NCBI GenBank assembly: GCA_903881315.1
Contig: CAIRSR010000113.1
Span: 4,693 to 68,692 of the forward strand
Length of the DNA: 64,000 nt
Direction: 5' to 3'
Source: an uncultured Thiotrichales bacterium
GTDB taxonomy: Bacteria > Pseudomonadota > Gammaproteobacteria > CAIRSR01
Part shown: positions 5,510-46,699 of the stretch, in pieces
Layout: each line of letters opens with the position of its first letter
How positions within the stretch are numbered: position 1 is the first letter of the stretch
Notes under the pieces: generated by a model
What the model saw: the letters and a program-made list of their open reading frames with translations, nothing else
Told to the model about the DNA's origin: nothing
Databases searched by the model: none
Position numbers and translations under genes: made by a program

Positions 5510-5608
5510 GGATGACTCTAAGTAGTGGTTGCCGTCCCTTTGGGGTTGAAGAATTTGCTGTCGCGTCTGTCTCAATGAAATTGTGGGTAGTTGAGTGGCC
5601 ATCCATCG

Positions 5609-9072: not shown

Positions 9073-9168
9073 TTGTCGGGCGCAAATACGGCAGGCATAG
9101 GGACAATGGTTCTCGGCGTCCTCACTTCGGGTATGTCTTGCCAATAAGGTAGGCACTGCGCCCGACAA
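9073..9168 (+). promoter_or_regulatory. 12-bp perfect inverted repeat in the leader just upstream of PKS1
   Basis: ttgtcgggcgca (9073-9084) and tgcgcccgacaa (9157-9168), 72-nt spacer, ending 36 nt before the ATG at 9204. Function unknown. Confidence 0.3.
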
Positions 9169-9203
9169 ACCACGCAAACTACTTTCACGGTATTGTTGAA
9201 GTC

Positions 9204-12200
9204 ATGGATTCAGTCAACGGTTCTTGTAATAACCTGGTTCGGCTGTTACGTCATTGGGCAACAACGACCCCAGAGGCGCTGGCCTATACCTTTCTGAAGG
9301 ATGGCCGCGATGAGGGGCTACGGTTTACCTTTCAGGAACTCGACCGACAGGCACGCGCTATTGCGGTTTCCCTAAGTGGCGCACAAGGAGAGCGGGCGCT
9401 ACTGCTCTATCCGCCGGGTATTGAATTCCTCGCTGGGTTCTTCGGTGCCCTCTATGCTGGGGTGATCGCAATCCCTGCCCCCCCTCCCGATGCGGCGCGT
9501 CTAAAGCGCACCTTGCCGCGCCTTCATGCCATCATCCATGACGCCGAGGCGTCGTTGGTGTTGGCGACGCACGATATTGTCGAGGCACTGGCGAAGGAGA
9601 TGGTGCCAGAGGAGGGGGCACCTTCGATGCGTTGGTTCGCCACCGATCGAGCTGACACGACGCGAGCAGACGAGTGGTCGGGTGCTCCGCCCATTGATGA
9701 CACCACCATCGCCTATCTGCAGTACACCTCGGGTTCAACCTCGACCCCCAAGGGGGTGATGCTGACCCATCGCAACATCATGGCGCAGAGTGCGACCCTC
9801 AAGGCTGGCTTTGGTTATGACCGGAACTCGATAGCCGTAACCTGGATGCCGTATTTCCATGATTACGGTCTGGTCGATGGCCTGTTGCAGCCGCTCTACA
9901 ATGGCATACCCTGTTATGTGTTGTCGCCGTTGACCTTTCTGCGGCGTCCCGAGCGCTGGCTAGAGGCCATTTCGCGCTTCCGTGGCACCCATACCCAGGC
10001 CCCCAATTTTGCCTACGAACAATGTATCCAGAAGGTAAGTGCGGCGAAACGCGCCACACTCGATCTAAGCTGTTTGCGCGAGGCGAGTAATGGGGCAGAA
10101 CCGATCCGGCGTGACACCGTAGAGGGGTTTATCAATGCCTTTGCTGAGTGCGGCCTTCACTCCGAGGCCATCTATCCCGCTTATGGTCTGGCCGAAGCAA
10201 CCTTGCAGGTGACGGCCAAGCCCCACCGGACGCTGCCCCGTTATTGCTATGCCGATGCTGCCGCGCTAGAGCGTAACCGGATAGTCGTGGTCTCGCCCGA
10301 CACGGCCAAGGCCAATTACCGCGCTATCGTGAGTTGTGGGGCACCGGCACCTGGCGTGGAGGTGGTGATTGCCGATTTGCTTACGCAGCGCCCTTTGCCC
10401 GATGGCATGGTCGGCGAGATCTGGGCTGCCGGCGAGAGTATCGGGGCTGGCTACTGGCGTCGCCCCGAGGAGAGTGAGGCGACCTTCGCCGCACGGCTTG
10501 CCGGAGACACCGAGCGTGGGCCATTCTTGCGCACCGGTGATCTCGGTTTCATGCTCAATGGTGAACTCTACATGACGGGTCGGGAGAAGGATCTCCTCAT
10601 TGTGGCGGGTGTGAACCACTACCCGCAGGACATCGAATGGACGGTACAAAACGTCGATAGCGCCTTTCGGCAGGATCACTGCGCTGCCTTTTCGATCGAG
10701 GTCGAGGGTGAGGAGCGCGTGGTGGTGGTGGCCGAGATGGAACGGAGGCTCGATGACTGGGGCGAGCTGCTGGTGCGGGTGCGACGCGCCCTCTCCGAGA
10801 ACCATGAACTCGATCTGTATGGGCTTTGTCTCATCAAAAAGGGTGAGGTGCTAAAGACCTCAAGCGGCAAGTTGCAGCGGCGTGGTTGTCGCGACGCCTA
10901 TCTCCAGAACAGCCTAGAGGCATTCTTTCGTTGGCAACGGGATGCTGCTCTGCCCGCTCCGCATCAGCAAGGGGTCGGCCTGGCCACAACCAGCACACGA
11001 AGCGCTTTGGCTATTGAGCAATGGTTGTTGGCTGAGCTTGCGCGCGTCCTTGCCTTGCCGCTGGGCTCCATTCAGCGTACCACGCCGTTTGCGGAGTATG
11101 GCCTTAGCTCGCGTGGGGCGGTGGCCTTGGTGGGGGCGCTGGAGGAGTGGCTCGGCGTTGCCGAACTGCCGGCAACGCTCCTCTGGGAGTATCCCACTGT
11201 TGCTGCGTTACGCGACTATCTCCTGCATGGCGCGAGTACCGTGGCGAGTAGTGCGCTTGCGCCCGAAGCGACGAGTGATGAGGCGCTTGCCATCGTTGGC
11301 GTTGCCTGTCGTTTTCCGGGGGCTGCGGACACGGAAGAATTTTGGGATCTGTTGGTGAATGGGCGTGACGCCATCCGCGAGGTGCCGCCAACGCGCTGGT
11401 CGGTCGCGGAGTTTTACGCAGAGGAAGCAGCAACGCCCGGACACATCAATAATCGCTTTGGTGGTTTTCTCGACGAGGTGGCGGGCTTTGATGCGGCCTT
11501 CTTTGGTATTGCGCCGCCCGAGGCAACGGTCATGGATCCTCAGCAGCGCTTGTTGTTGGAGCTATGCCTTGAGGCGCTAGAGGCGGCTAACATCAATCCG
11601 CACACGCTGGCCGGTAGCGATGCTGGTGTGTTCATCGGCATTAGCACCGACGACTATACCGAGTGGCAGTTTTCCGAGCGGAACCGCATCAGTCCCTATG
11701 CCGGGACGGGTAAGGCGCTGTCTATCGCGGCGAATCGTATCTCCTACCAGTTCGACCTGCATGGCCCGAGCATGGCCATCGATACGGCCTGCTCGTCGTC
11801 GCTGGTGGCCTTGCACCAGGCCGCCCAGGCGTTGCGCCGCAATGATTGCACGCTGGCTTTGGTGGGTGGCGTCAATCTGTTGTTGTCACCGAAGATGAGC
11901 GTTGCGCTTTCGCAGGCGCAGATGCTCTCACCGGATGGTCGCTGCAAGGCCTTTGATGCGGCGGCGAATGGCTATGTGCGTAGCGAAGGCGGGGGTATGC
12001 TGGTCATGAAGCGCCTCGCTGATGCGCGACGTGACGGGGATACTGTCCTTGCCCTGCTGCGCGGCAGTGCGGTCAACCAGGATGGGCGCAGCAATGGTCT
12101 GACCGCGCCGAATGGTCTTGCCCAACAGGCGGTTATTCGCCGAGCGCTACAGGATGCTCGCGTGGCGGCCAGCGCAATTCGTGTCGTCGAGGCGCATGGT

Positions 12201-15200
12201 ACGGGTACGGCGCTTGGTGACCCGATCGAGGTACGATCTCTACAGGCGGTGCTTGGCGAGGGACGCAGCGCTGACCAGCCCTGTCTCATCGGTTCGGTGA
12301 AGAGCAACATCGGCCACCTCGAGGCAGCGGCTGGGATGGCTGGCCTCATCAAGCTGGTTCTCTGTATTCGTCATGGTCAGGTGGTGCCGACGCTGCACTT
12401 CAAGACCCTAAACCCGCAGATTGCCTTGCACGGGACGCCGTTTGCGATCGCCTCGCAGTTGCAGGCGTGGCCGAACGGGGAGCGGCTTGCGTCGATCAGC
12501 TCCTTTGGCTTTGGTGGCACCAACGCGCACGCCATTCTGTCCGCGCCACCCGATGACGGCAATGGTGGTCTCACGCCTCAAGGCATGGCTGAAGTGCGCA
12601 CGGATCACCACCTGTTGCTGCTCTCGGCCCACACGCGCCCAGCGCTGGCTACCCTCGCCAAGCGCTACCTGGGTCGTCTGAAACAGCACGAGGTGGCGCT
12701 GCCCTCTTTTTGTGCGAGTGCTGCGTTGGGGCGTGCTGCATGGAGTGAGCGGTTAGCGCTCGTTGCTGCGGATGGTGAGGCCCTCGCAGCCGGGCTCACA
12801 GACTTTGTGGTGCAAGGCGCGACACCTGTGGTGCGCGCCCTTGATCAAAGGCCGAAGGTTGCCTGGCTCTTTACTGGCCAGGGTTCGCAGTACAGCGGTA
12901 TGGGAAAGGCGCTGTATCGGGGCGAGCCCGTCTTTCGCGCCGAGATCGAGCGCTGCAACCAAGTGTTGGCACCGCTCATCGGGGTGTCGCTGACTGAACT
13001 GCTGTGGGATGAGCACTTTGCCAAGCAGCTTGATAACACCCGTTATACCCAGCCCGCGCTGTTTGCCTTGCAGGTCGCCTTGGCGCGAACCTTGTTGCAC
13101 TGGGGGGTTCAGCCTGACGCCGTGATGGGACACAGCGTTGGCGAGTATGCTGCCGCCTGCATCGCGGGCCTATTCACGGTGGAGGAGGGGCTGCACCTCA
13201 CGGCGGCGCGTGGGCGACTGGTGGATGAACTCGGTGGTGCGGGTGGGATGGTTGCGGTGCTTGGTGATGAGTCTCGGGTACGTGCGGCCCTTGTTGGCAT
13301 CGAAGGGGTTGAACTCGCTACCCTAAACGGCCCGGCGGGTCAGGTGATTGCGGGTAGCCACGAGGCTTTGGCGCGGGCGACCCTCCACCTTGAGGGGCTT
13401 GGTCTTGAGGTGCGCCCCCTTGTGGTTTCTCACCCCTTCCACTCGGTTGGCATGGAGCCACTAGAGGCACCCTTCGCGGAGGTGGCGCGTGGTGTTCGTT
13501 TTCAGCCACCACAGATTGCCCTTATCTCTAACCTGACCGCCGATTTTGCAAGCGCCGAGATGGCCGGTGCGGACTACTGGGTTGCCCATCTTCGTCAACC
13601 GGTGCGCTTTGCCGCGAGTATCGAGCGCCTCATCGCGCACGACTTCGATACCTTCATTGAGATTGGCCCGAAGCCCACCCTGCTCGGTATGGCGGAACGC
13701 ATTGCGCACCCCGAGGGTGTTTTGTGGCTCCCGACCTTGCGTCCCGCTGAACCGGATTGGCAGCGCCTACTTACGACCCTTGGCCGCTTTTGGCAGCGGG
13801 GTGGTGCTGTCAATTGGGGGGCGTTTTATGGGCGCACACCGCGCCTTCTGCTCCCCCATTACCCGTTCGAGCGGCGTCGTTTCTGGCTCGACAGGCCGCG
13901 AGAGCGGGTCGCTCATGAGGCCACGTCATTGCTGGGTGAGAAGATCCAGTCACCGTTGTTTGCCGGGACACTCTTCCAGAATGATTTTAGTCTCGAGCGA
14001 TTGCCGTTTTACGGGGAGCATCGGGTCTTCGGTGAGGTGGTGGTGCCGGCGGCGGGTCATCTCTCGTTGTTACTAGAGGCGGCCCTTGCCCTGCATGGTG
14101 AGCCAGCCTGTGAGCTTTCTAATATCATCTTTCCGCAACCACTGATCCTGCCGGAGGCGGGTGGGCGGCGGGTGCAATTGTTGGTCGAAAAGGGAGCCAA
14201 TGATGCTGCCCAACTACGCCCGTTCCGGCTCATCTCGAGTACGCCGGAGGGGATGGCGACGGATGCCTATGAGACCCACGCAAGTGGTGTACTCGGTCGT
14301 GCCACGACCACCCCCTTGCTCGGCGTGACCGCGTTTGCCGCCGTGTCGCGGGATGATGGTTCTGTGGATGATTTCTATACGTCCATCTGGCAGCCCCAGA
14401 TCGAGTTGGGGCAGACCTTTCGCTGCATAGAGACGCTGGCGCGTCGCGGGAGTACGGCGCAGGCACGGTTACGTGTGCCGGTGGAGCGCGGCCCGTGGAG
14501 TGACTTACAACTCTATCCAGGACTGCTCGACTCGGCCTTACAGGTATTGGCGGCACTCGTCACCCTAGACGCGAGTGAGGCCATGATCCCGTTTAGCATC
14601 GAGCGACTGGTCTACCACGGCCATGGTGTACAGCGGCCTCGGTGTTTTTGGAGCGAGGTCATGCTCCAGGCGAGCGATGACCCGACCATTGCGCTCGCCA
14701 ATGTGCGCCTGTGGGCGGAGTTGGCGGACGGTAGTCACCACTTGGCGGCGGAGTTGCAGGGTTTTCGGGCGCGGCGGGTAGAGCGCGATCGGCTGCTGCG
14801 GGAATTACGGCGCGGCTACCAAGAGCACCTGTACCGCGTGGAGTGGGAGACGGTGACGGTTTCCGTCGCGCCTCTGGCGGGTCGTTGGCTTATCTTTGAT
14901 GACCATGCCGGTCGCACCAGCGCCTTGGTGGCGCGGCATTCCCGAGGCGTCGTCGTGCAGACCCGCGAGGAACTGGCTGCCCATCTTACCGCCGAGGGGG
15001 GTGACTGGTGTGGGGTGGTGTTTGGCGCGGGCCTTGACCTGGTGGGTGCACCCGATGCGGCTGCGCTTGAGCCGCTGCTGACCCTGCTGCTTGCGGTGGT
15101 GGAGATACTTGCTGCAGAACCGCTACCGCTCCTGGTCTTGACGGCAGGCGGACAGACGTTGCTCGGTCGCTCTGGCGAGCCACTCCAACGTGCGTTGTGG

Positions 15201-16568
15201 GCGCTCGCGCGGGTGGTGCGCCGTGAACTACCGGCGTTGCGCTGTCAGCTCCTTGACCTTGAGGCAACCGAGGCGCGTGATGGCGACCTCCCATCGCTTG
15301 GGGACTATCCCGCCGAATTGGCCTGGCGTGATGGCCAGTTCTATCGGCCACTTCTGACACCCTATCGCCTCGCGCAAGGGGGGAAACTGTCCGCGCCGAT
15401 TTGCGCCGATCGCGGCTACCTCGTCACTGGTGGCCTCGGAACACTCGGGCTCTCGTGTGCGCAGTGGTTGGTTCAGCAGGGGGCGGGCATGGTGACGTTA
15501 CTGGGTCGTCGCCCCCCGAATGCCGAGCAGCAGGCGCAGCTTGCGCGGCTCGGTGAGGCGAAAACCATTATCCGGGTCGTTGCTGGGGACGTAACCGATG
15601 GTGTGGCGCTTCGAGCGCTCTGGCCTTCCTTGACTGGGGGAGTATTGCCGCTTGCGGGGGTCTTTCACCTGGCCGGTGTGCTGGATGATGGCCCGATCCT
15701 GCAGCAGACGTGGCAGCGCTTTCTGCCGGTGCTGGCACCGAAGGTTATCGGCAGTTGGCATCTGCACCAGTTGAGTCAGTCGCTTGCGCTGGATTATTTC
15801 GTTGCCTTTTCTTCGATAGCGCCCGTTGTTGGTTCTGCTGGTCAGGCGAGCTATGCCTTTGCCAATGGCTATCTGGATGGGCTGATGGCGAGCCGAAGTG
15901 GCGACGGGCTTGCGGGTCTCACTATCAACTGGGGGCCGTGGCGGGGTGGCATGGCGGCCTCGCTGACCCAGCGCTTTAGCGAGTGGGGCATAGAACTCCT
16001 CGACCCGATGCGGTCGTTTACCACCCTTGCGTCTCTCTCTGCAGCACCACCCGAGGGGGGAGAGGTCGCGGTCTTTCCGGTAGATTGGGGGCGGTTTATC
16101 AGCCGCAGTGGCGCGAATCCGCTCTACGACCACCTGAAGCCTGAGAGTGCTGCGGTAAGTGCCAGCACCACGACCCGCAGTTGGATGGATAGCCTCGCGG
16201 CAGCGGAGGGTGAGCAACGCTGGACAATGCTCGAGCAGTATCTTCGCGAGACGATTGCAACGACCGTTGGGCTCGCTGACGCCGACTCGTTTGCAGCACG
16301 GAAACGCTTGTTTGAGTTAGGGCTTGATTCCCTCGGTGCGGTAGAGCTGCGCAACCGCTTGGTGCAGATGCTTGGGCGTGATCTGCGCTCCACCCTGCTC
16401 TTCGACTACCCAACCCTCGCAGCACTCCTCGGCCACATCGGCAATGAGGTATTGGGCTGGCCGCACCAAGGGGCTGAGCCCGTAGCAGAGGTGGTGGCGC
16501 AAGTGGAGGCGTTGGATGCCCTCTCGGATGAGGCGTTAGCGGCCCTTTTGGCAGCAGAATTGGGTTAA
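9204..16568 (+). CDS. Type I PKS, loading plus module 1: FAAL-ACP-KS-AT-DH-KR-ACP
   Basis: FAAL: YLQYTSGSTSTPKGVMLTHRNI (9713-), GDLGF..GELYMTGREKDLLIVAGVNHYPQDIE. ACP0 Ser in FAEYGLSSRG (about 11094). KS: DTACSSSL (11781), HGTGT, NIGH. AT: GQGSQYSGMG (12883), GHSVGE (13127), SHPFHS. DH: HRVFGEVVVPAAGH (14019), LLDSALQ. KR: TGGLGTLG (15426), LDD motif, SSIA..YAFAN. ACP: LGLDSLG (16317). Confidence 0.95.
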   Translation: MDSVNGSCNNLVRLLRHWATTTPEALAYTFLKDGRDEGLRFTFQELDRQARAIAVSLSGAQGERALLLYPPGIEFLAGFFGALYAGVIAIPAPPPDAARLKRTLPRLHAIIHDAEASLVLATHDIVEALAKEMVPEEGAPSMRWFATDRADTTRADEWSGAPPIDDTTIAYLQYTSGSTSTPKGVMLTHRNIMAQSATLKAGFGYDRNSIAVTWMPYFHDYGLVDGLLQPLYNGIPCYVLSPLTFLRRPERWLEAISRFRGTHTQAPNFAYEQCIQKVSAAKRATLDLSCLREASNGAEPIRRDTVEGFINAFAECGLHSEAIYPAYGLAEATLQVTAKPHRTLPRYCYADAAALERNRIVVVSPDTAKANYRAIVSCGAPAPGVEVVIADLLTQRPLPDGMVGEIWAAGESIGAGYWRRPEESEATFAARLAGDTERGPFLRTGDLGFMLNGELYMTGREKDLLIVAGVNHYPQDIEWTVQNVDSAFRQDHCAAFSIEVEGEERVVVVAEMERRLDDWGELLVRVRRALSENHELDLYGLCLIKKGEVLKTSSGKLQRRGCRDAYLQNSLEAFFRWQRDAALPAPHQQGVGLATTSTRSALAIEQWLLAELARVLALPLGSIQRTTPFAEYGLSSRGAVALVGALEEWLGVAELPATLLWEYPTVAALRDYLLHGASTVASSALAPEATSDEALAIVGVACRFPGAADTEEFWDLLVNGRDAIREVPPTRWSVAEFYAEEAATPGHINNRFGGFLDEVAGFDAAFFGIAPPEATVMDPQQRLLLELCLEALEAANINPHTLAGSDAGVFIGISTDDYTEWQFSERNRISPYAGTGKALSIAANRISYQFDLHGPSMAIDTACSSSLVALHQAAQALRRNDCTLALVGGVNLLLSPKMSVALSQAQMLSPDGRCKAFDAAANGYVRSEGGGMLVMKRLADARRDGDTVLALLRGSAVNQDGRSNGLTAPNGLAQQAVIRRALQDARVAASAIRVVEAHGTGTALGDPIEVRSLQAVLGEGRSADQPCLIGSVKSNIGHLEAAAGMAGLIKLVLCIRHGQVVPTLHFKTLNPQIALHGTPFAIASQLQAWPNGERLASISSFGFGGTNAHAILSAPPDDGNGGLTPQGMAEVRTDHHLLLLSAHTRPALATLAKRYLGRLKQHEVALPSFCASAALGRAAWSERLALVAADGEALAAGLTDFVVQGATPVVRALDQRPKVAWLFTGQGSQYSGMGKALYRGEPVFRAEIERCNQVLAPLIGVSLTELLWDEHFAKQLDNTRYTQPALFALQVALARTLLHWGVQPDAVMGHSVGEYAAACIAGLFTVEEGLHLTAARGRLVDELGGAGGMVAVLGDESRVRAALVGIEGVELATLNGPAGQVIAGSHEALARATLHLEGLGLEVRPLVVSHPFHSVGMEPLEAPFAEVARGVRFQPPQIALISNLTADFASAEMAGADYWVAHLRQPVRFAASIERLIAHDFDTFIEIGPKPTLLGMAERIAHPEGVLWLPTLRPAEPDWQRLLTTLGRFWQRGGAVNWGAFYGRTPRLLLPHYPFERRRFWLDRPRERVAHEATSLLGEKIQSPLFAGTLFQNDFSLERLPFYGEHRVFGEVVVPAAGHLSLLLEAALALHGEPACELSNIIFPQPLILPEAGGRRVQLLVEKGANDAAQLRPFRLISSTPEGMATDAYETHASGVLGRATTTPLLGVTAFAAVSRDDGSVDDFYTSIWQPQIELGQTFRCIETLARRGSTAQARLRVPVERGPWSDLQLYPGLLDSALQVLAALVTLDASEAMIPFSIERLVYHGHGVQRPRCFWSEVMLQASDDPTIALANVRLWAELADGSHHLAAELQGFRARRVERDRLLRELRRGYQEHLYRVEWETVTVSVAPLAGRWLIFDDHAGRTSALVARHSRGVVVQTREELAAHLTAEGGDWCGVVFGAGLDLVGAPDAAALEPLLTLLLAVVEILAAEPLPLLVLTAGGQTLLGRSGEPLQRALWALARVVRRELPALRCQLLDLEATEARDGDLPSLGDYPAELAWRDGQFYRPLLTPYRLAQGGKLSAPICADRGYLVTGGLGTLGLSCAQWLVQQGAGMVTLLGRRPPNAEQQAQLARLGEAKTIIRVVAGDVTDGVALRALWPSLTGGVLPLAGVFHLAGVLDDGPILQQTWQRFLPVLAPKVIGSWHLHQLSQSLALDYFVAFSSIAPVVGSAGQASYAFANGYLDGLMASRSGDGLAGLTINWGPWRGGMAASLTQRFSEWGIELLDPMRSFTTLASLSAAPPEGGEVAVFPVDWGRFISRSGANPLYDHLKPESAAVSASTTTRSWMDSLAAAEGEQRWTMLEQYLRETIATTVGLADADSFAARKRLFELGLDSLGAVELRNRLVQMLGRDLRSTLLFDYPTLAALLGHIGNEVLGWPHQGAEPVAEVVAQVEALDALSDEALAALLAAELG

Positions 16569-16577
16569 TCTAGTGAC

Positions 16578-22181: not shown

Positions 22182-22232
22182 TTTGGTGAATTGCAGTCGT
22201 CGCGTCGCTCTCTGAATGGTTGGAGGTTGGCT

Positions 22233-24203: not shown

Positions 24204-24305
24204 TCGGTCGAAAAGGGCAGTAGGGAAACTACGCCGACACCGCTGCCTGGGGCGATGCTTGCGGCGCACTGATTCAACCAGAGAAAAAGGCAGAAGCCAA
24301 CCAAT

Positions 24306-30965: not shown

Positions 30966-33900
30966 GCGTGACTGTAGCCAGTAGCCGTGGTGTTGCAACA
31001 CCGGATGACATGAGCCCCCTCCAGCGGGCGGCGCTAACGATTCGCGAGCTAAAGAGTAAGCTTGAGGACAGTCGCCAATCCCAGTTTGAGCCGATAGCCG
31101 TTGTCGGCATGGATTGTCGTTTTCCCGGGGCGTCTTCGCTTGATGAGTTTTGGGCGTTACTGCGCGATGGGGTGGATGCGGTGCGTGAGGTGCCGCTGGA
31201 TCGTTGGGATCTGTCGGAGTGGTTTGACGCAAACCCGAACGCTGCCGGTAAGATCAATACCCGTCATGGCGCTTTTATCGAGGATGTCGCGGGTTTTGAT
31301 GCTGCGTTCTTTGGCATCCCGCCCCGTGAGGCTATGCAGATGGATCCTGGCCAACGCCTGTTGTTGCAGATCACCTGGAGCGCACTCGAGCGGGCGATGA
31401 TCCCGCCGGAGTCGTTGCGCGGCAGTCGTAGCGGTTTTTTTGTCGGCATGAGCCAGAATGATTATGGCTCCCTCCAGATCAATGGCGACCCGAGTGCAAT
31501 TACCGCCTACAGTGGTACCGGGAATGGCTGGTGTTTTGCGTGTGGGCGCATTGCCTTTCAGTATGGTTTCAACGGCCCGGCCCTGACCACCGATACGGCC
31601 TGTTCTTCGTCGCTGGTGGCCATGCACCAGGCGGTCAATGCCCTGCGTATGCGCGAGTGTGATGTAGCCATGGCGGCGGGTGTGCAGCTCAACCTAACGC
31701 CGCCGATGCAGGTGTTTTTCGCCCGTACCCAATCCTTTTCGCCAGACGGTCGCTGCTTTACCTTTGATGCACGGGCGAACGGTCTGGTGCTCGGGGAAGG
31801 CGTGGCGGTGGTGGTGTTGCGACGCTTGAGCGATGCGTTACGCGATGGGCAGCCTGTCCTGGCGGTGATTCGCTCGACCAGCCTCAACCATGATGGTGCC
31901 TCGGGTGGGCTGACCGTGCCGAATGAGAGCGCCCAAGAGGCGCTGATCCGTGACGCATTGCAACGTGCGCGGGTCGCCCCAGACAGTATCGATTATATCG
32001 AGACCCACGGCACTGCCACCCCGCTTGGCGATCCTATCGAGGTCGGCGCATTACGCGCCGTGTTTGGCAAGCGCCCCGCGAGTCAGCCGCTTACCATCGG
32101 CTCGGTCAAGACCAACATCGGTCATCTGAACGCCTCGGCGGCGATTGCGGGTTTTATCAAGACCGTGTTAATGCTGCAACACCAGCAGATGGTTCCGCAT
32201 CTGCACTACCGCGAACCGAATCCCAAGATACCCTGGCAGGGTTTTGCGGTACAAGTGCCGACTGCGTTGCAACCTTGGCCGGCACCGCCGTTAGGTCAGC
32301 CGCGCCGTGCGGGTCTCAGTTCCTTTGGTTTGAGCGGCACCAATGGTCATCTCGTGTTAGAGGAATGGCCGATAGCGGTTGCAACCCCGCAAACCGAGCC
32401 CCCAGTGGTGGAGCGCCCACTGCACCTGTTCGCCCTTTCGGCGCGGAGTGAAGTGGCGCTACGGGCGTTGGCCGCGAGTCATCGGCAACGGCTTAGTGCA
32501 GATCAGGGGCTATCGTTGGCTGACTATTGTTATAGCGCCAATGCCGGTAGGAGCCATCTTGGTTGGCGCGCCATTGTGTGTTGTGCCACCATTCTTGAGT
32601 TGCAGGAGGCCCTGGGTGCGCTGGCTGTGGGTAGCGAGCATCCGTGTTTGCGTGGCCCACAGCGAAACCGTGGCGCAGCGCCTAAGGTGTTGATGACGCT
32701 CGCGCACGACCCTGCACCGTGGCTGATAACGCATCCGGTCTCTCGCAAATGGCTTGCCCACTATGCTCGTGTGAGCGGATTGCTGCTTGATACAGCAGTG
32801 CTTGACGCCAACCGCACACCCGCCACAGAACTTGCAGGCTACCTGGTGCTCGCCGCGCTGTGGCAGGCGTGGGGGGTACAACCAACCGCCGTGCAGGGGG
32901 TTGGCGGTGGTCGCTATGCGGCGGCGGTGCTCGCTGGTGCGCTTACTGCCGAGGAGGCCTTTGCGGCTCTTCTGCAAGGTCGAGCGCCCGTCCTCGCGGC
33001 CCCACAGCGCACCCTGCTGGAGGGGGATGGCAGTCGCCTGGTGTCCCTCCAAGGGGGGGGGCAGCCTTTGGCGGCGCTAGCGGGCTACGATGTGCGGTTG
33101 TCTCTCGGCAGAGAGGACGCGCCGGAAGAGGGCTCTTCTTTGCCCTGGACGAGTGTGCTCGAGGAGCTGGTGGCCTTCTATCTGGAGGGAGGCGCGGTTG
33201 ACTGGCGTGGTTTCGATGCGGGTTACGGGCGGCATTGGTTGGTTCTGCCTACCTATCCCTTTGCCCGCGACCGTTACTGGCGCGACAATCAGGTTGTAGC
33301 TCCGCCGACAAAGGTGGTGGCAGCGCCTGTGGTGGCAATGGAGCGAGACAACCCGCCCGCTCTGGCGGCGGAGCCGGAAAAGGGCGCACCGTCTGTTGCA
33401 CCGGAGGGTGAGCCACCGGTGTCGGTAGCGCCAGTGGTGTCAGCGCCGACGGAACCGGTATCGGCCCGAGCGTCGTTAGTCCCCGAACCAACAACTGCAG
33501 TGGTTTCGTCCTCGTGGTCGTTGGCGCAATTGATGGAGCGCCAGTTGCAACTGGTCGCTGAGGCCATCAGTAGTGTGACGCTGCAGCAATTGACGGCGCT
33601 GCAGGTCATTACTGCGGCAGGGGCTAAGGTGGCGGCGGTTGGGCCCGCTTGCGACGCTCCTTCCCAGGTGCCACCTCTTGCGCCCAATCCGCTAATTGCA
33701 GAGGGGACGCAGGGGCAGTCCCTCCCCGAGGGGGAGTCTTTCACCGAACAATCAGAGAAAGAGAGACCTTCTCAACCGGAAGAAACGAGTGGGGGAGCAG
33801 CGCACGGGACGGGTGAGTGCCACATGACAACGGATGGTTGTGGTGGCGCTGCTGAAGACCCTCCGGTTTCTCCAGTAATCCCTGTGGCCAGCGTAATCGA

Positions 33901-35245
33901 TCCGCTGCGTTGTGGTGATTGGCGCTTGTTGCTCTGCCACGCTGCCGACCCGGATGCGCTCTTGGCCGAGCGGCAGTTGCTTGCGGCGCAAATTATCGAT
34001 GCCCCCGATGCGGTGCTGGCCGCGAGTCGCAAGGCCTTGCAGCAGCCCCCTGCCGTTGGTCGGCGATTGATGCTGAGTTATCAGGATGTTCAAGAGGCCG
34101 CCCTGGCGCTCGGCACCCAAGGCAGTAAGCGAGTAATCAGCGCCGCTAGTCATGAACAGGCACCAGCGGTTGTCTTTATGTTTCCAGGCGTGGGGGATCA
34201 CTACCTCAATATGGGGCAGGGTCTGTATCGGGCAGAGCCGTTATTCCGCGCGATCGTTGATCATTGTTGTGACTATCTGTTGCCGGTAATCCATGTTGAT
34301 CTGCGCACGGTGCTCTATCCGCTGGAACCAGTGAATACAAATCCTGAGGCCGCAGCACCGAAATTCGATCTGCGTGCTATGTTGGGGCGTGGGTCTTCTC
34401 CACCCAATCCGCAATTAGAGCGCCTGAATCAGACGCTGCATAGTCAACCGCTGTTGTTTATTATCGAATATGCGTTGGCGCGGTTGTGGTTGGCGCGGGG
34501 TGTGCAGCCGCTTGCGATGATTGGTTACAGCATTGGCGAATACACTGCGGCGGTTTTAAGTGATGTGATGGCGCTGGATGATGCCCTGCGACTGATTGCC
34601 CGTCGCGCCGAGCTGATTGAGGGGGTTGCCCCGGGCGCAATGTTGGCGATACCGTTGGGTCTAGATGCCTTGCAATCACGACTTGGTGGGGGGCTTTCTT
34701 TGGCGATTAGCAGTACGCCGAATCAGTCGGTGGTTGCCGGGCCCGTTCTGGCTATTGAGGCATTGCAAGAGCAGCTCAAGGCGCAAGAGGTGGTGTGTCG
34801 AAGGCTGCAAAGCAGTCACGCATTCCATTCGACCATGCTACAACCCTTGCACCAGCCATTGCGGAAACTCGTGAGTGAGTTTCGTTTGCAAGCGCCGCGC
34901 ATCCCCTATATTTCTAATGTGACGGGGGATTGGATTCGAGATGCCGAGGCGACCGACCCCGACTATTGGGCACGTCATACCTGGCAGACGGTGCGTTTTG
35001 CCGATGGCCTAGGGCGGCTGCTGGCGCCGGACGCATTTGCTGGCGCGAGTAATCGGCTATTTCTAGAGGTGGGCCCGGGGGTAAGCCTTGGTAGTTTCAT
35101 GCTGCAGCACCCGGCGTCGGCGCAATTGGCGCGGAAAGTGAGTCTGCCAACACTTCGCACGATGTATGAGCGAACCCCCGACGAGCAATTCTTGCTAAAC
35201 ACCCTGGGTAAACTCTATCTGGCTGGTGTCCAATTATCTCTGTAA
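30962..35245 (+). CDS. Type I PKS, terminal protein: KS - degenerate AT-like region - about 290-aa low-complexity linker - intact AT; no ACP, no release domain
   Basis: The start (TTG 30962 or GTG 30968) overlaps the PKS3 stop codon. Docking-like LTIRELKSKLEDS. KS: DTACSSSL (31592), HGTAT, NIGH. See the domain sub-features below. Confidence 0.9.
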   Translation: MSVTVASSRGVATPDDMSPLQRAALTIRELKSKLEDSRQSQFEPIAVVGMDCRFPGASSLDEFWALLRDGVDAVREVPLDRWDLSEWFDANPNAAGKINTRHGAFIEDVAGFDAAFFGIPPREAMQMDPGQRLLLQITWSALERAMIPPESLRGSRSGFFVGMSQNDYGSLQINGDPSAITAYSGTGNGWCFACGRIAFQYGFNGPALTTDTACSSSLVAMHQAVNALRMRECDVAMAAGVQLNLTPPMQVFFARTQSFSPDGRCFTFDARANGLVLGEGVAVVVLRRLSDALRDGQPVLAVIRSTSLNHDGASGGLTVPNESAQEALIRDALQRARVAPDSIDYIETHGTATPLGDPIEVGALRAVFGKRPASQPLTIGSVKTNIGHLNASAAIAGFIKTVLMLQHQQMVPHLHYREPNPKIPWQGFAVQVPTALQPWPAPPLGQPRRAGLSSFGLSGTNGHLVLEEWPIAVATPQTEPPVVERPLHLFALSARSEVALRALAASHRQRLSADQGLSLADYCYSANAGRSHLGWRAIVCCATILELQEALGALAVGSEHPCLRGPQRNRGAAPKVLMTLAHDPAPWLITHPVSRKWLAHYARVSGLLLDTAVLDANRTPATELAGYLVLAALWQAWGVQPTAVQGVGGGRYAAAVLAGALTAEEAFAALLQGRAPVLAAPQRTLLEGDGSRLVSLQGGGQPLAALAGYDVRLSLGREDAPEEGSSLPWTSVLEELVAFYLEGGAVDWRGFDAGYGRHWLVLPTYPFARDRYWRDNQVVAPPTKVVAAPVVAMERDNPPALAAEPEKGAPSVAPEGEPPVSVAPVVSAPTEPVSARASLVPEPTTAVVSSSWSLAQLMERQLQLVAEAISSVTLQQLTALQVITAAGAKVAAVGPACDAPSQVPPLAPNPLIAEGTQGQSLPEGESFTEQSEKERPSQPEETSGGAAHGTGECHMTTDGCGGAAEDPPVSPVIPVASVIDPLRCGDWRLLLCHAADPDALLAERQLLAAQIIDAPDAVLAASRKALQQPPAVGRRLMLSYQDVQEAALALGTQGSKRVISAASHEQAPAVVFMFPGVGDHYLNMGQGLYRAEPLFRAIVDHCCDYLLPVIHVDLRTVLYPLEPVNTNPEAAAPKFDLRAMLGRGSSPPNPQLERLNQTLHSQPLLFIIEYALARLWLARGVQPLAMIGYSIGEYTAAVLSDVMALDDALRLIARRAELIEGVAPGAMLAIPLGLDALQSRLGGGLSLAISSTPNQSVVAGPVLAIEALQEQLKAQEVVCRRLQSSHAFHSTMLQPLHQPLRKLVSEFRLQAPRIPYISNVTGDWIRDAEATDPDYWARHTWQTVRFADGLGRLLAPDAFAGASNRLFLEVGPGVSLGSFMLQHPASAQLARKVSLPTLRTMYERTPDEQFLLNTLGKLYLAGVQLSL
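32414..33286 (+). other. Degenerate (catalytically dead) AT-like / KS-AT linker region of PKS4
   Basis: GQGxQ is replaced by KVLMTLAHDPAPW. The GHSxG nucleophile is replaced by GVGGGRY (32897-32917). The region is shorter than the ATs of modules 1-3, but the post-AT motif YPFARDRYW is kept. Confidence 0.7.
34157..35245 (+). other. Intact C-terminal acyltransferase domain of PKS4 with variant nucleophile elbow
   Basis: VVFMFPGVGDHYLNMG, GYSIGE (34523-34540) instead of GHSxGE, SSHAFHS, EVGPG. It lies at the extreme C-terminus with no carrier domain after it. Confidence 0.8.
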
Positions 35246-35265
35246 CGTACCTTGGGAGTGATAGG

Positions 35266-36123
35266 ATGAATAATAACACCGTGGGTGTTGTTGGTGCTGG
35301 GGTTATGGGTAGTGGTGTTGCGCAGAATCTGGCGCAGAGCGGTTTTACTGTCGTACTGATCGATATTAATGAGAAGGTATTGCAACGTACCGAGGCAGAG
35401 ATTCGTAAGAATGTTCGCTTCTCGGCGTTTTATGCAAAGGATAAAACGAAGGTTGAATCAGTGGAGACGGTCTTAGGTCGCATCGAGTTTACGACGGATT
35501 ACAGTAAACTCGCGACTGCCTATTTTATTGTTGAGAATGCCTCGGAGATATGGGAGGTAAAGCAGGCGGTCTATCCGTTGATTGATAAATATGCGCCGCC
35601 CGAGGCGCGCGTTGCTGCTGATACCTCGTGTTTTTCGATTACTCGTTTGGCCTCATTGACCGCACGGCCCGACAAGATCATCGGTATGCACTTTATGAAT
35701 CCGGTGCCAATGAAGACCACCGTCGAGGTGATCAAGGGGTATCACACCAGTCCTGAGACCATTACGATTGGTCTTGATTTTCTGGCGCGGATGGGTAAGG
35801 ACGGGATTGTTGTTAATGATGCTCCGGGTTTTGTTTCTAATCGGGTGCTGATGCTTACGGTGAATGAGGCAGTCTTTGTGGTTCATGATGGGGTTGCGAC
35901 GGCGGCCCAGGTCGATGAAATACACCGCAAATGTTTTGGGCATAAAATGGGGCCCCTAGAGACAGCCGACCTGATCGGCCTAGATACGATCCTTTATTCA
36001 GTGGAAGTGCTTTGGGAGAGTTATAATGATAGCAAATATCGTCCGTGTCCATTGCTAAAGAAAATGGTTGCCGCCGGTTTACTGGGGCGTAAGAGTGGCG
36101 AAGGTTTCTACAAATACAAGTGA
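35266..36123 (+). CDS. 3-hydroxyacyl-CoA/ACP dehydrogenase (FkbK/ZmaG-like)
   Basis: GGGAG RBS. Rossmann motif VGVVGAGVMGSGVAQNLA. HFMNPVP, DAPGFVSNRV, GPLETADLIGLD. Confidence 0.85.
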   Translation: MNNNTVGVVGAGVMGSGVAQNLAQSGFTVVLIDINEKVLQRTEAEIRKNVRFSAFYAKDKTKVESVETVLGRIEFTTDYSKLATAYFIVENASEIWEVKQAVYPLIDKYAPPEARVAADTSCFSITRLASLTARPDKIIGMHFMNPVPMKTTVEVIKGYHTSPETITIGLDFLARMGKDGIVVNDAPGFVSNRVLMLTVNEAVFVVHDGVATAAQVDEIHRKCFGHKMGPLETADLIGLDTILYSVEVLWESYNDSKYRPCPLLKKMVAAGLLGRKSGEGFYKYK

Positions 36124-36134
36124 AAGAGTGAAAC

Positions 36135-36368
36135 ATGAGTACAATTGAAGACGCGGTGCGGAGTTTTCTCGGGCAGTTCGTCAGTGATCCGGATGTCGAG
36201 GGCGATCACGATCTGTTTAGTTCCGGCATGGTAAATTCTCTGTTTGCCATGCAGTTGGTGCTATTCGTTGAGAAGCAATATGGTATCACGGTGGCAAACG
36301 AGGATCTTGATTACGAGAATTTTAAATCAGTGAATGCCATTGTCGGTTTTATCCAGTCAAAGCAGTAA
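36135..36368 (+). CDS. Discrete acyl carrier protein (FkbJ/ZmaD-like)
   Basis: 77 aa and acidic. Helix II motif SSGMVNSLFAMQLVLFVE (Ser in NSL as the putative phosphopantetheine site). Sits between the two dehydrogenase genes. Confidence 0.75.
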   Translation: MSTIEDAVRSFLGQFVSDPDVEGDHDLFSSGMVNSLFAMQLVLFVEKQYGITVANEDLDYENFKSVNAIVGFIQSKQ

Positions 36369-36381
36369 TGGGAGTAGCGTG

Positions 36382-37569
36382 ATGGACTTTGATCTAACCA
36401 CCGAGCAGTCTCGTGCCAAGAGTGAATTTCGCCAGTGGGTGGAACAATGCGTGGTGCCGGTAGCTGATGCCAATGACAATCGTGAACAAACCCCACCGGA
36501 GTTGATTGCCGAGATTGCGGCAAACGGTTATCTCGGTGCATTGGTTGCAAAGGAATACGGTGGGAGGGGCATGGATGCGTTGACTTGGGGGCTTTTGTGC
36601 GAAGAGGTGGGGCGCGGTAGTGCCTCGTTGCTGAGTTTGCTTACTGTGCATGGCATGGTCATCCAATCCCTAGCGAAATGGGGCACACTTGCGCAGCGTG
36701 AGCGGTGGTTACCAAAATTGGCAACGGGTGCCACGGTTGGTGCGTTTGGGCTTACCGAGCCGAATATTGGCAGTGACGCGAAGAATATTGAGAGCACGGC
36801 AGTGTTACAAGCGGATGGAACCTATCTGCTGAATGCCGAGAAACGCTGGATATCCTTTGGCGCATCGGCTGACCTGGTGCTCGTCATTGCCAAGGTTGGC
36901 GATAAGGCGACTGCCTTTTTGGTAGAACGCGGTATGCCAGGGTTTTCGATAGAGCCAATTCGTGGGATGCTTGGTTTTCGTTCGGCAAATATTGCGCGCC
37001 TTTTGATGCGTGATGTGATTATTCCTGCTCAGAATATCGTCGGGAAGGTTGGTTTTGGTTTCTCACATATTGCTGGGACTGCGCTTGATCATGGTCGCTA
37101 CTGTGTCGGTTGGGGCTGTGTTGGGCTTGCCCAGGCGGCATTGGATGCAGCGCTCTCTTATTCCGGCGAGCGCTATCAGTTTGAAGTGACATTAAATAAA
37201 CACCAACTGATCCAAGAGATGTTGGCCGAGATGATCGTCAACGTCAAAGCGGCGCGGATGCTGAATTACCATGCGGCCTTCCTCAAGGATCGAGGCGATC
37301 CGTCATTGATTATGGAAACATCAATGGCAAAATATTTTGCGTCGCGGGTTGCCAGTCAGGCTGCAAATGCTGCCGTGCAGATCCATGGTGCCAATGGTTG
37401 TTCTAGCGATTATCCGGTGCAGCGTTATTTTCGTGACGCCAAGATTATGGAGATCATCGAGGGCAGCAACCAGATGCAGCAGATCATCATTGCCAAATCA
37501 GGTTATCAACAACATTTGGTGAACAAACGGGCAGCACGGCGCTCAGCGGCAGAAGGGGAGGGGCGGTGA
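36382..37569 (+). CDS. Acyl-CoA/ACP dehydrogenase family flavoprotein (FkbI/ZmaE-like)
   Basis: GGGAG lies before ATG 36382. FGLTEPNIGSDA, RWISFG, QIHGANGCSSDYPVQRYFRDAKIMEIIEGSNQMQ. The ORF track's earlier start overlaps the ACP gene and was not used. Confidence 0.85.
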   Translation: MDFDLTTEQSRAKSEFRQWVEQCVVPVADANDNREQTPPELIAEIAANGYLGALVAKEYGGRGMDALTWGLLCEEVGRGSASLLSLLTVHGMVIQSLAKWGTLAQRERWLPKLATGATVGAFGLTEPNIGSDAKNIESTAVLQADGTYLLNAEKRWISFGASADLVLVIAKVGDKATAFLVERGMPGFSIEPIRGMLGFRSANIARLLMRDVIIPAQNIVGKVGFGFSHIAGTALDHGRYCVGWGCVGLAQAALDAALSYSGERYQFEVTLNKHQLIQEMLAEMIVNVKAARMLNYHAAFLKDRGDPSLIMETSMAKYFASRVASQAANAAVQIHGANGCSSDYPVQRYFRDAKIMEIIEGSNQMQQIIIAKSGYQQHLVNKRAARRSAAEGEGR

Positions 37570-38621
37570 TGGCTGGGAAGCAGAAGGAAAAGGATCATAA
37601 AGTAAAATGCCTGGTCTGGGATCTCGATAACACCCTATGGCGCGGCACACTGCTAGAAGACAAAGAGGTAATGCTGATCCCCGAGGCGGTTGAGTTAATC
37701 AAGACGCTGGATGATCGCGGTATTCTGCAATCCATTGCGAGCAAGAATGATCATCCGCTGGCGGAAAAGAAACTGCGCGAACTCGGATTATTCGATTACT
37801 TTCTCTATCCGCAGATCAACTGGGATGCCAAGTCGCAGTCTATCCAGAAGATTGCAACGCTCATTAATATTGGTATTGATACCCTAGCGTTTATTGACGA
37901 TCAAGCGTTTGAGCGCGAGGAAGTGAGCTTTAGTCATCCGCAGGTACTTACCATTGATGCGGCTCTCGTGGCGCAAGTGGCCGAGTTAGCGGTAATGCGT
38001 CCGCAGTTTATCACCGAGGATTCGCGGCGGCGGCGGGAGATGTACCAGAGCGACCTGAGGCGGAAAGAGGTCGAGGAGGGTTTTAGTGGCCCGCAGGATG
38101 CGTTCCTAGAAACGCTGGGTATGGTGCTGACGATTAGCCAGGCCAAGCAGGACGACTTGAAAAGGGCGGAGGAACTAACCCAGCGTACCAATCAGCTCAA
38201 CACTACTGCATATACCTACGATTATGATGAACTCGCAGTCTTTAGTACGTCTTCCGATTATCTGCTATTGGTTGCGGGGCTCGATGACAAATATGGGACG
38301 TACGGTAAGATTGGCCTAGTTCTGGTCGAGAAGCGTGGGCAAACCTGGTTGATTAAGCTGCTGCTCATGTCTTGCCGGGTAATGTCGCGCGGTGTTGGGA
38401 CGGTGATGATTAACTATTTGCGGAACATGGCGCGTGCTGCTGGGGTGGCATTAGAGGCCGAGTTTGTTCAGAATGACAGAAATCGCATGATGTATATGAC
38501 GTATAAGTTTAATCATTTCCGTGAGAAGGAAAAGCGCGATAATTGGATCTTGCTTGAGAATGATCTAAGCAGGGTACAGGTGTATCCTCCTTATATGAAA
38601 CTGATAACCGATGAGATGTAA
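37569..38621 (+). CDS. FkbH-like HAD-superfamily phosphatase/glyceryl-ACP loading enzyme
   Basis: The start overlaps the upstream stop codon (GTGATG). HAD motif I VWDLDNTLW, SKN, FIDDQ. C-terminal LLLMSCRVMSRGVG is Cys-containing and resembles the FkbH/OzmB catalytic region as I recall it. About 350 aa. Confidence 0.8.
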   Translation: MAGKQKEKDHKVKCLVWDLDNTLWRGTLLEDKEVMLIPEAVELIKTLDDRGILQSIASKNDHPLAEKKLRELGLFDYFLYPQINWDAKSQSIQKIATLINIGIDTLAFIDDQAFEREEVSFSHPQVLTIDAALVAQVAELAVMRPQFITEDSRRRREMYQSDLRRKEVEEGFSGPQDAFLETLGMVLTISQAKQDDLKRAEELTQRTNQLNTTAYTYDYDELAVFSTSSDYLLLVAGLDDKYGTYGKIGLVLVEKRGQTWLIKLLLMSCRVMSRGVGTVMINYLRNMARAAGVALEAEFVQNDRNRMMYMTYKFNHFREKEKRDNWILLENDLSRVQVYPPYMKLITDEM

Positions 38622-38645
38622 GCCTTGTGGTAAAGGTGTTCTGGT

Positions 38646-39821
38646 ATGACGCAAGCAGTGGAATTTTTCGATAGCACAGCGGTTGATCAGGGAAGCCAAG
38701 GATTCTCTGGTGCAGTTAGTGATGGGCGCTATCTGTATTTTGTGCCGATGGCAAATGGGCCGGGTCGGTTTTCTGGTCAGGTGACCCGTTATGACAGTCA
38801 TGGCGACTTTCAGGATCCGACCAGTTGGACGGTGTTCGATACTGCGGTTGTTAATTCGGCGAGTCGCGGTTTTGCGAATGGTCTGTTTGATGGTCGCTAT
38901 CTGTATATGATTCCGTATCACAATGATCAGCACCATGGTCAGGTCACTCGTTACGATACCCGAGGGGAATTTGATAGTCCCGCCTCGTGGGATTTCTTTG
39001 ATGTACAGATCCTCATTGACACTGGACGTGGTTTTGTGAGTGGTTGTTTCGACGGTCGTTATCTGTATCTTACGCCGTATCAAATTTCATGGACGCTGTA
39101 TAACGGTACGATGGTTCGTTACGACACAACCAGAGACTTTGCTGATAGAGATAGCTGGGAGGTGTTTGACAGCACATCGCTATCAAGCATGAGTTGTGGT
39201 TTTCATTCGGCAGTGGATACTCGGGATTTTATCTATTTTGTGCCATTTGTCCGTGCGCAGCGTGATTATCATGGGCTATTGGTGCGTTTTCGGCGTAGTG
39301 GTGGCTTTGCTGATCCAAATAGTTGGGAGATGGTTGACATCAAGGGATTCAACCCGCGTGGCTGCGGTTTCATTGGTGGCTGTTTTGATAGCCAATACCT
39401 ATATCTCGCTCCCTATTTTGATGGAAAGGGTCGATTTGGGCAGGTGGCTCGCTATGACAATTTGCAGCCACTTAACGAGGATGCTAGCTGGCAATTCTTT
39501 GACACTGAATTGGTGCACAGCGAAAGTCGTGGATTCTTTGGGACGTTACTTCACAACGAGTTTATTTATTTTATCCCGCACTGTAAGGCGGAAGGAATAT
39601 ATAACGGTCAGATCACTCGTTACGATCGAAGAGAGTCTTTTATGAGTCCATCTGCCTGGTCTGTGTTGGATACTGCCGCTTATCACCCGATGAGTAAGGG
39701 CTATATTGGGGGAGCGGTGATAAATAATTATCTTTATATGGCACCCTACGAAACAGCGCCAGCAGCGCATAGTGGATTAATTGCAAGGATTGATTTGGCT
39801 GTGCGTACCGTTTGGAAATGA
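38646..39821 (+). CDS. Seven-repeat (beta-propeller-like) protein of unknown function
   Basis: Seven tandem units of about 55 aa with consensus SW..FD......GF.G..FDGRYLY..PY......G.V.RYD....F: DGRYLYFVP, DGRYLYMIPY, DGRYLYLTPY, RDFIYFVPF, DSQYLYLAPY, NEFIYFIPH, NNYLYMAPY. No signal peptide and no catalytic motif that I recognise. Confidence 0.7.
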   Translation: MTQAVEFFDSTAVDQGSQGFSGAVSDGRYLYFVPMANGPGRFSGQVTRYDSHGDFQDPTSWTVFDTAVVNSASRGFANGLFDGRYLYMIPYHNDQHHGQVTRYDTRGEFDSPASWDFFDVQILIDTGRGFVSGCFDGRYLYLTPYQISWTLYNGTMVRYDTTRDFADRDSWEVFDSTSLSSMSCGFHSAVDTRDFIYFVPFVRAQRDYHGLLVRFRRSGGFADPNSWEMVDIKGFNPRGCGFIGGCFDSQYLYLAPYFDGKGRFGQVARYDNLQPLNEDASWQFFDTELVHSESRGFFGTLLHNEFIYFIPHCKAEGIYNGQITRYDRRESFMSPSAWSVLDTAAYHPMSKGYIGGAVINNYLYMAPYETAPAAHSGLIARIDLAVRTVWK

Positions 39822-46675: not shown

Positions 46676-46699
46676 GGTGACCTCGGGAGGCAAAGGGTT

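Follow-up and report, generated by a model that had tools for sequence, protein, structure and literature searches.

We describe here a fatty-acyl-primed polyketide synthase (PKS) line from an uncultured Thiotrichales bacterium, encoded in a 64,000-nucleotide stretch of contig CAIRSR010000113.1 that we call the window. Four PKS proteins (PKS1 to PKS4), a cassette of FkbH-type extender genes and a β-propeller gene follow one another in it. The reading that we favour, with a probability of about 0.55, is that this region is the lipid-tail PKS half of a dispersed member of a conserved, uncharacterised family of hybrids that join PKS to nonribosomal peptide synthetase (NRPS). The aminotransferase (AmT)/NRPS gene would then lie elsewhere in this genome. 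A preliminary description, made from the sequence alone, had predicted a fatty acid extended to a methyl-branched triene and then by one unreduced unit. The methyl-branched triene remains the prediction; in place of the final unreduced extension, a lipopeptide-type α-hydroxy-β-amino acyl compound is the more likely product.

A carrier-less PKS protein and the layout of its relatives

The evidence starts with PKS4, a half-module that by its motifs has an active KS, one active AT and no ACP. Domain calls throughout come from Pfam and NCBIfam profile scans of the open reading frames (ORFs) of the window. Pfam found no PP-binding domain in PKS4, and a carrier hidden in its linker was ruled out because that segment gave no Pfam match even at E≤10. 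The first of its two AT domains (AT1) is degenerate and reaches 22 bits against Acyl_transf_1, under the Pfam cut-off. The second (AT2) has the SpnD-type AT 5yda (6.4e-59) and the ZmaA AT 4qbu (1.7e-58) as its closest solved structures, and has in common with ZmaA the unusual nucleophile elbow GYSxGEY. In zwittermicin biosynthesis, the acyltransferase ZmaA receives its hydroxymalonyl from a free ACP.

Is this arrangement peculiar to one genome? A homologue search covered 5.8 billion proteins, and the best 120 matches were examined. Among these, 65 are PKS4-like proteins of 1150-1500 amino acids, so that at least 65 exist. Precomputed Pfam annotation gives KS and AT for the 65, with a carrier also listed in a single one. 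The DTACSS motif is kept in all 65 and the C-terminal GYS[IVLM]GEY in 64, and wherever the first AT site is recognisable it reads GxG[VI]G, with glycine in place of the serine. The pairing of a dead with a live AT is therefore an ancient trait kept by selection, not an accident of one locus.

The genes around PKS4 are conserved too. Four independent relatives have the same canonical order: PKS3 (with a cMT domain), PKS4, FkbK, ACP, FkbI, FkbH, the propeller and, last, a protein of some 1800 amino acids whose domains are, in order, PP-binding, class III aminotransferase, C, A and PCP (ACP-AmT-C-A-PCP). These relatives are Thalassomonas sp. RHCl1 (L050), a Comamonadaceae metagenome-assembled genome (MAG; L002) and two unrelated metagenome contigs (L053 and L056/57). 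A KS-(AT)-KR-carrier module comes next in L050 and L053, and is followed in L053 by a 2955-amino-acid NRPS with a sulfotransferase domain; L002 and L056 break off within the aminotransferase protein. In a Magnetococcus MAG (L051) the propeller gene also stands immediately 5′ of the gene for the ACP-AmT-C-A-PCP protein. Judged from gene order, PKS4 is thus not terminal in its family, as the preliminary description had taken it to be: the block of PKS4, FkbKJIH and propeller recurs in L002, L050, L053 and L056/57, and there it continues into the ACP-AmT-C-A-PCP protein. Since an ACP heads the next megasynthase in these relatives, the carrier absent from PKS4 would come from the aminotransferase-fused protein. 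Members of the family occur in Thalassomonas, Comamonadaceae, Magnetococcales, Sulfuricellaceae, Thiotrichales and many metagenomes. A literature search found no characterised cluster in which a FAAL-PKS and an FkbH cassette occur together with an aminotransferase, and the preliminary description likewise could not match the combination seen in the window to any characterised cluster.

The two closest relatives are GCA_963575715.1 (L055) and a Thiotrichales MAG (L001), whose PKS4 proteins are 70% and 67% identical to that of the window. In both, unrelated housekeeping genes, htpG and polyamine genes among them, stand directly after PKS3-PKS4. In GCA_963575715.1 a propeller of 74% identity is found alone on a separate contig (L052). 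The genes after PKS4 in L001 (14232-17945, minus strand) form a polyamine set that resembles Orn/Arg decarboxylase, saccharopine dehydrogenase and carboxynorspermidine decarboxylase; their position may be a coincidence.

A second line of evidence comes from the upstream edge. The window opens inside another PKS gene, UpPKS. A metagenome contig that overlaps the window and adds 4.8 kb upstream (L046) carries the complete gene, which encodes a KS-AT-KR-carrier protein of 1531 amino acids (L046 1142-5737). Its KS keeps the active Cys (NTACSTS) and its AT motif is GYSLGE. Against the hybrid NRPS/PKS KS structures 4wky, 4oqj, 8xjy, ClbC and ClbK this KS scores 362-503 bits, compared with 322 bits against CurL and about 290 against DEBS. 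The preference of the PKS4 KS is the reverse (CurL, its second-best match, 511 bits; PikA/DEBS about 415; 4oqj 327). That the KS of UpPKS is of the hybrid type and its carrier PCP-like suggests an aminoacyl or peptidyl donor, and hence an NRPS partner somewhere. Among 119 loci, its best match is the module that follows the NRPS in Thalassomonas (1289 bits, 48.8% identity; runner-up 1077 bits). Similarity to UpPKS in a metagenome scan was what had recruited 61 of these 119 loci, and the 61 are generic hybrid KS-AT-KR modules, none with a propeller or AmT match and none closer to UpPKS than the Thalassomonas module.

Several observations weigh against the reading of a dispersed hybrid cluster. 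In a tblastn search with the ACP-AmT and C-A segments of Thalassomonas, only carrier domains were matched in the window and L046 (about 69 kb together), and a profile search with five ACP-AmT sequences did not find an AmT/NRPS gene of the same organism. The gene 5′ of UpPKS in L046 is not an NRPS. UpPKS is 48.8% identical to the canonical module and 43% identical to generic hybrid modules, and because this margin is modest its orthology is unproven. Finally, the specificity motif of AT2 is the malonyl-type HAFH where ZmaA has GAAH, so that hydroxymalonyl specificity is assigned to AT2 from its context alone.

One candidate for the missing AmT gene, P0317, was rejected because it comes from a different sample; its layout, with a stand-alone AT, is a related one. 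A locus that joins the same hydroxymalonyl and aminotransferase logic in another wiring was seen in ERZ28626359 scaffold_61 (L058, 3019-17798), in the order FkbI, ETF alpha/beta, FkbK, ACP, FkbH, a 445-amino-acid AT, ACP-AmT-C, KS-AT, ACP and an A domain. Its stand-alone AT is 33% identical to AT2.

Genes and domains of the window

Table 1. Positions of the features discussed, numbered from the first nucleotide of the window.
Feature	Position	Strand	Domains, motifs and remarks
UpPKS, 3′ end	8-916	+	KR and PCP-like carrier (GGNSL); Pfam KR, PP-binding; window opens inside the gene
Small DUF697 protein	1386-1943	+	Pfam PF05128; between UpPKS and ABC exporter; pathway membership uncertain
ABC exporter	2099-3787	+	Fused permease/ATPase, cyclic-peptide-exporter type; Pfam ABC_tran, ABC_membrane
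Discrete thioesterase (TE)	3784-4509	+	Type II-like, GHSMG elbow; Pfam PF00975 2e-36; candidate release/editing enzyme
APS kinase (CysC)	4787-5407	+	Pfam PF01583 1.1e-67; possible supply of 3′-phosphoadenosine-5′-phosphosulfate (PAPS); membership uncertain
PKS1	9204-16568	+	FAAL-ACP loading, then module 1 KS-AT-DH-KR-ACP; Pfam AMP-binding, two PP-binding stretches, KS, AT, DH, KR
PKS2	16578-22181	+	Module 2 KS-AT-DH-KR-ACP (Pfam)
AsmA-like envelope protein	22191-24203	+	Pfam PF05170 2.7e-42; NCBIfam AsmA 3.1e-24
PKS3	24306-30965	+	Module 3 KS-AT-DH-cMT-KR-ACP (Pfam; Methyltransf_12 7e-18)
PKS4	30962-35245	+	Carrier-less half-module KS-dead AT-linker-AT (Pfam and motifs)
PKS4 KS	~31088-32209	+	DTACSS, HGTAT, NIGHL (active)
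PKS4 degenerate AT (AT1)	~32640-33540	+	GVGGG at 32897-32911 in place of GHSxG
PKS4 linker	~33540-34140	+	About 200 amino acids, Ala/Pro-rich, disordered
PKS4 active ZmaA-like AT (AT2)	~34170-35242	+	GYSIGE and HAFH
FkbK-like 3-hydroxyacyl-CoA dehydrogenase homologue	35266-36123	+	Pfam 3HCDH_N 1.4e-52, 3HCDH 1e-32
Free-standing ACP (FkbJ-like)	36135-36368	+	77 amino acids; Pfam PP-binding 1.7e-7; called as a gene in L044
FkbI-like acyl-CoA/ACP dehydrogenase homologue	36334-37569	+	Pfam Acyl-CoA_dh N, M and C domains
FkbH-like glyceryl-ACP synthase/phosphatase	37566-38621	+	TIGR01686 277.8 bits, cut-off 146.65
Kelch-like β-propeller	38646-39821	+	Seven blades, 391 amino acids; AlphaFold2 model, pLDDT 96.7

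The genes from PKS1 through the propeller are all on the plus strand and closely packed, with intergenic gaps of -4 to 102 nt. The scans reproduced, at the positions of Table 1, the four domain strings given in the preliminary description, and with them the FAAL start, the embedded asmA, the carrier-less PKS4 and the FkbH cassette. The best NCBIfam families for the adenylation domain of PKS1 are fatty-acid--AMP ligases (FAAL; E=4e-127 to 6e-121), with scores below the full-length cut-offs because a single domain was scored. Modules 1 to 3 are complete: each has a KS with its Cys-His-His triad, GHSxG in the integrated AT and the DSL serine of the ACP. In PKS1 the motifs read DTACSS, GHSVG, HPFH and LDD, the last being present in the KRs of modules 1 and 2. 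The integrated ATs of PKS1, PKS2 and PKS3 show HPFH, HAFH and HAFH, the malonyl-type motifs already given in the earlier reading. The DH of PKS2 (about residues 990-1160) has the variant motifs HxxxGxxxxA and DSCFG instead of HxxxGxxxxP and DxxxQ/H; it may therefore be less active and leave a hydroxyl in place of the middle double bond. The PKS termini carry the helical N-terminal heads and acidic C-terminal tails that had been said to fit head-to-tail docking, PKS4 being without a C-terminal tail.

GC content is 60-63% from PKS1 through PKS4, AsmA included, and 45-53% in the FkbH cassette. Because other genes of the window cover the same range, this contrast is not a clear signal of transfer. 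When 1-9400 and 35000-40400 were scanned for promoters and terminators, the counts did not exceed those of shuffled sequence and no site was informative.

The AsmA gene sits between PKS2 and PKS3, 9 nt behind the former. Its GC content, 61%, is the same as that of the PKS block, and the N-terminus of its product is an inner-membrane anchor (MKKALVVVAVIVAIVVVGVLAV), the true start probably being the Met codon near 22233. The order AsmA-PKS3-PKS4 is also found in L001, where AsmA is 48% identical. The canonical clusters have no AsmA gene at this place; it was seen there in the window and L001 alone.

Behind PKS4, the genes up to and including the propeller are separated by gaps of at most 24 nt, and those for FkbK, ACP, FkbI and FkbH by 11-20 nt or by overlaps; the gene model of L044 places the FkbI start at 36382. 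That FkbK and FkbI are encoded speaks for oxidation to hydroxymalonyl, and since no FkbG-type O-methyltransferase is encoded between 35266 and 39821, hydroxymalonyl and not methoxymalonyl is the predicted extender. A tetronate-type use of FkbH was rejected because the Pfam scans of the main ORFs of the window contain no FabH-like KS. The ACP, FkbI and FkbH proteins are closest to those of Ectothiorhodospiraceae bacterium BW-2 (CP032507.1; L048), with 85, 74 and 73% identity respectively. The order there (L048 3278-11212) is methyltransferase, ACP, FkbI, FkbH, a 280-amino-acid protein, a P-type-ATPase-like protein and the propeller, and there is no PKS within 10 kb. Therefore, the FkbH/propeller unit exists outside PKS clusters too.

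The sequence of the propeller has no match in Pfam, NCBIfam or PDB. It has 984 homologues, some of them with a faint match to PF24681. Foldseek returned generic Kelch domains as best matches for the model (TM about 0.5, 13-17% identity), and the model has seven blades as against the six of the Kelch fold. Such generic structural matches do not support its assignment to a known enzyme. It is a conserved companion of the cluster family, syntenic in L002, L050, L053 and L056.

Why did the line seem to have no release step? Within PKS1-PKS4 the earlier statement holds, the Pfam scan having found none of the domains ER, TE, R, C and sulfotransferase there, and TE and R domains are missing from UpPKS as well. 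A discrete TE is nevertheless present upstream, outside the interval originally drawn (9204-39821). The missing release is largely an effect of those coordinates, because the homologue of the later module, the TE and the exporter sit at 8-4509. The exporter reaches 323.9 bits against TIGR01194 (cyc_pep_trnsptr), whose cut-off is 286.2, and its gene overlaps the TE gene by 4 nt. Off-loading of the olefin synthase or CurM type was rejected: no ST-TE didomain and no Sulfotransfer domain were found in the window.

Other genes of this edge are of uncertain relevance. The gene before UpPKS (L046 2-982) encodes at least 326 amino acids, the contig ending inside it, and gave no Pfam, NCBIfam or PDB match; an 81-amino-acid ORF between UpPKS and PKS1 had no Pfam match. 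The APS kinase gene is followed by a Rce1-like gene on the opposite strand and by genes for an SPFH protein and a periplasmic binding protein. In L053 (20682-21278 and beyond) the NRPS after the KS-KR-ACP module has a Sulfotransfer_3 domain, which, together with the APS kinase beside the TE in the window, hints at sulfation. Two tandem GTPase-DUF697 proteins are encoded at 48328-51367 (minus strand), and a third, short DUF697 protein is the one that adjoins the exporter and TE.

The genes 3′ of the propeller look like housekeeping genes: glycogen phosphorylase, a kinase, sox genes, GTPases and a TPR protein. The latter (55239-61442, minus strand) has 2067 amino acids, nearly all of them TPR repeats, and a C-terminal FkbM-type methyltransferase domain (PF05050). 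SoxA/TsdA-type cytochrome c, SoxY, rhodaneses and a cNMP-binding-rhodanese fusion are encoded at 45141-47534 (minus strand), 51528-52649 and 61463-62002 (both plus strand). The sox genes and rhodaneses mark the host as a sulfur oxidiser, and the sox genes together with the nearest genomes point to a Thiotrichales-like one.

Predicted pathway and competing explanations

A model of the pathway in the dispersed hybrid cluster can be drawn up as follows. As read from the domains, the FAAL would adenylate a fatty acid and load it on the first ACP, modules 1 to 3 would add malonate to give a 2-methyl-2,4,6-trienoyl thioester, and FkbH, ACP, FkbK and FkbI would make hydroxymalonyl on the free ACP. 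The trienoyl chain would then be accepted by the KS of PKS4, and AT2 would pass hydroxymalonyl, taken off the free ACP, on to a module ACP provided in trans, AT1 serving as a dead scaffold. The ACP-AmT-C-A-PCP protein would aminate the β-keto group, and would join the 3-amino-2-hydroxy-4-methyl-polyenoyl unit so formed to an amino acid. Next, a reduced C2 unit would be added by a KS-AT-KR-carrier module, whose copy in the window would be UpPKS (ending at 916). Release or editing of the chain would be left to the discrete TE and export of the product to the ABC exporter, and its passage across the envelope may be the task of the AsmA-like protein.

Could the genes of the window instead suffice by themselves? 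We consider this unlikely, though it is the most probable of the competing explanations. This Thiotrichales-like lineage would have lost the AmT/NRPS step, and at the KS of PKS4 the trienoyl chain would undergo direct condensation with hydroxymalonyl borne by the free 77-amino-acid ACP, whose gene adjoins the 3′ end of PKS4. The 2-hydroxy-3-oxoacyl-ACP so formed would be extended by UpPKS or hydrolysed by the TE, possibly decarboxylating to an α-hydroxyketone. The product would be a true lipid, trafficked by the AsmA-like protein, which comes closest to the view of the preliminary description. The lack of any AmT, C or A domain in the roughly 69 kb fits such a loss, as does the absence of an NRPS after PKS4 in all three related genomes. 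So does the AsmA gene, embedded in this lineage alone (the window and L001), and the position of the closest relatives of the FkbH cassette at the PKS-free L048 suggests that it was recruited independently. On the other hand, the KS and carrier of UpPKS are of the hybrid, NRPS-interacting type, and PKS4 retains an AT2 that would be superfluous if its KS used the free ACP directly. Moreover, the propeller is kept but scattered in the sister genome, which makes absence from one contig weak evidence of loss. An envelope-lipid pathway along these lines, in which the KS of PKS4 and free-ACP hydroxymalonyl, aided by the propeller, would give an α-hydroxy-β-oxo (or further extended) lipid that reaches the outer membrane via AsmA, seems to us unlikely. 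To this unlikely reading belongs, for the family as a whole, the idea that the split module, KS-dead AT-AT on one protein and ACP-aminotransferase on the next, would when fed by hydroxymalonyl-ACP be an undescribed route to α-hydroxy-β-amino acids, with the propeller as a new obligatory accessory protein.

It is improbable that two unrelated pathways meet here, with UpPKS, TE and exporter as another small hybrid system and all the partners of PKS1-4 elsewhere. The seemingly unrelated genes between TE and PKS1 (APS kinase, Rce1-like, SPFH and periplasmic binding protein), in an interval given as 8.3 kb, would fit this explanation, and modules of the UpPKS type, KS-AT-KR, are common in many hybrid clusters. 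Nevertheless, UpPKS finds its best match in the equivalent module of the canonical family, it lies on the same strand as PKS1-4 and no NRPS partner adjoins it either. Just as improbable is a decaying, rearranged remnant that has lost essential parts and makes no product: the canonical order is indeed disrupted, with UpPKS upstream and not downstream and the AmT-NRPS missing, and the GC content of the PKS block (60-63%) differs from that of the cassette (45-53%), but the reading frames of 2.0 to 7.4 kb are all intact, the KS, AT, KR and ACP catalytic motifs are preserved, and PKS3 and PKS4 recur at 67-72% identity, with no frameshifts, in two other genomes.

If the reading of a dispersed hybrid cluster is true, α-hydroxy-β-amino polyene acyl units would arise by a new route, from a hydroxymalonyl extender and on-line transamination; the α-hydroxy-β-amino pharmacophore is of the bestatin/microginin type. 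The conserved split module would be of unusual design, with a dead scaffold AT, a fused extender-specific AT, a carrier on the following protein and a conserved Kelch-like propeller. For genome mining, the case illustrates that a seemingly release-less PKS line can be a fragment of a dispersed pathway. The cluster of the window is one orphan family among very many, yet with a clear and testable biochemical peculiarity. A complete contiguous cluster is present in Thalassomonas sp. RHCl1 (CANDNZ010000013.1, about 35-75 kb), which its record names as a strain and not a MAG and through which the product may be within practical reach.

Relation to known systems

The FAAL-ACP loading and PKS extension of the window are alike in mycosubtilin MycA/iturin, puwainaphycin (Puw), ralsolamycin RmyA and microginin-type lines. 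In RmyA and MycA an ACP-linked aminotransferase converts the β-keto group and passes the chain to C-A-PCP (PMC4989320), and puwainaphycin follows the same logic of a β-amino fatty acid module (PMC4219810). RmyA has its aminotransferase domains beside luciferase-like monooxygenase domains, with FkbH not mentioned (PMC4989320). The arrangement of an ACP-linked class III aminotransferase with C-A-PCP in the MycA/Puw/Rmy type is matched in L050, L002, L053 and L056, whereas by tblastn both the ACP-aminotransferase and the C-A-PCP are absent from the window and L046. Two further differences from this type are the three reducing PKS modules, one with a cMT, ahead of the amination module and the splitting of the latter over two proteins, with a dead AT and a second AT. 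In RmyA the monooxygenase domains, the usual source, would supply the α-hydroxyl; here it is predicted to come from the hydroxymalonyl extender instead.

The enzyme functions of the zwittermicin and FkbH-K-J-I cassettes are established background to this prediction. Zwittermicin ZmaN/D/G/E and the FkbH-K-J-I genes of FK506/FK520 follow the same four-gene logic, with an FkbH-type loader, a free ACP and two dehydrogenase-like oxidoreductases. Unlike the FK506/FK520 cassette, the one described here has no FkbG-type O-methyltransferase, and unlike the zwittermicin and FK506 cassettes it has the Kelch-like propeller as an extra conserved member. AT2 resembles the AT of zwittermicin ZmaA (4qbu, GYSxGEY), but it follows a dead AT, to which it is fused, in a KS protein that lacks a carrier, and it has HAFH, not GAAH. 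Finally, the CurL-like linker domains (PF22621), helical heads and acidic tails are alike in the curacin CurL-type cis-AT PKS with class 2 docking, from which the line of the window differs in its priming and tailoring and in having no CurM-type sulfotransferase-TE off-loading. Modular cis-AT PKS, FAAL-primed β-amino lipopeptide lines and FkbH cassettes are thus all known kinds of system; their combination here is undescribed.

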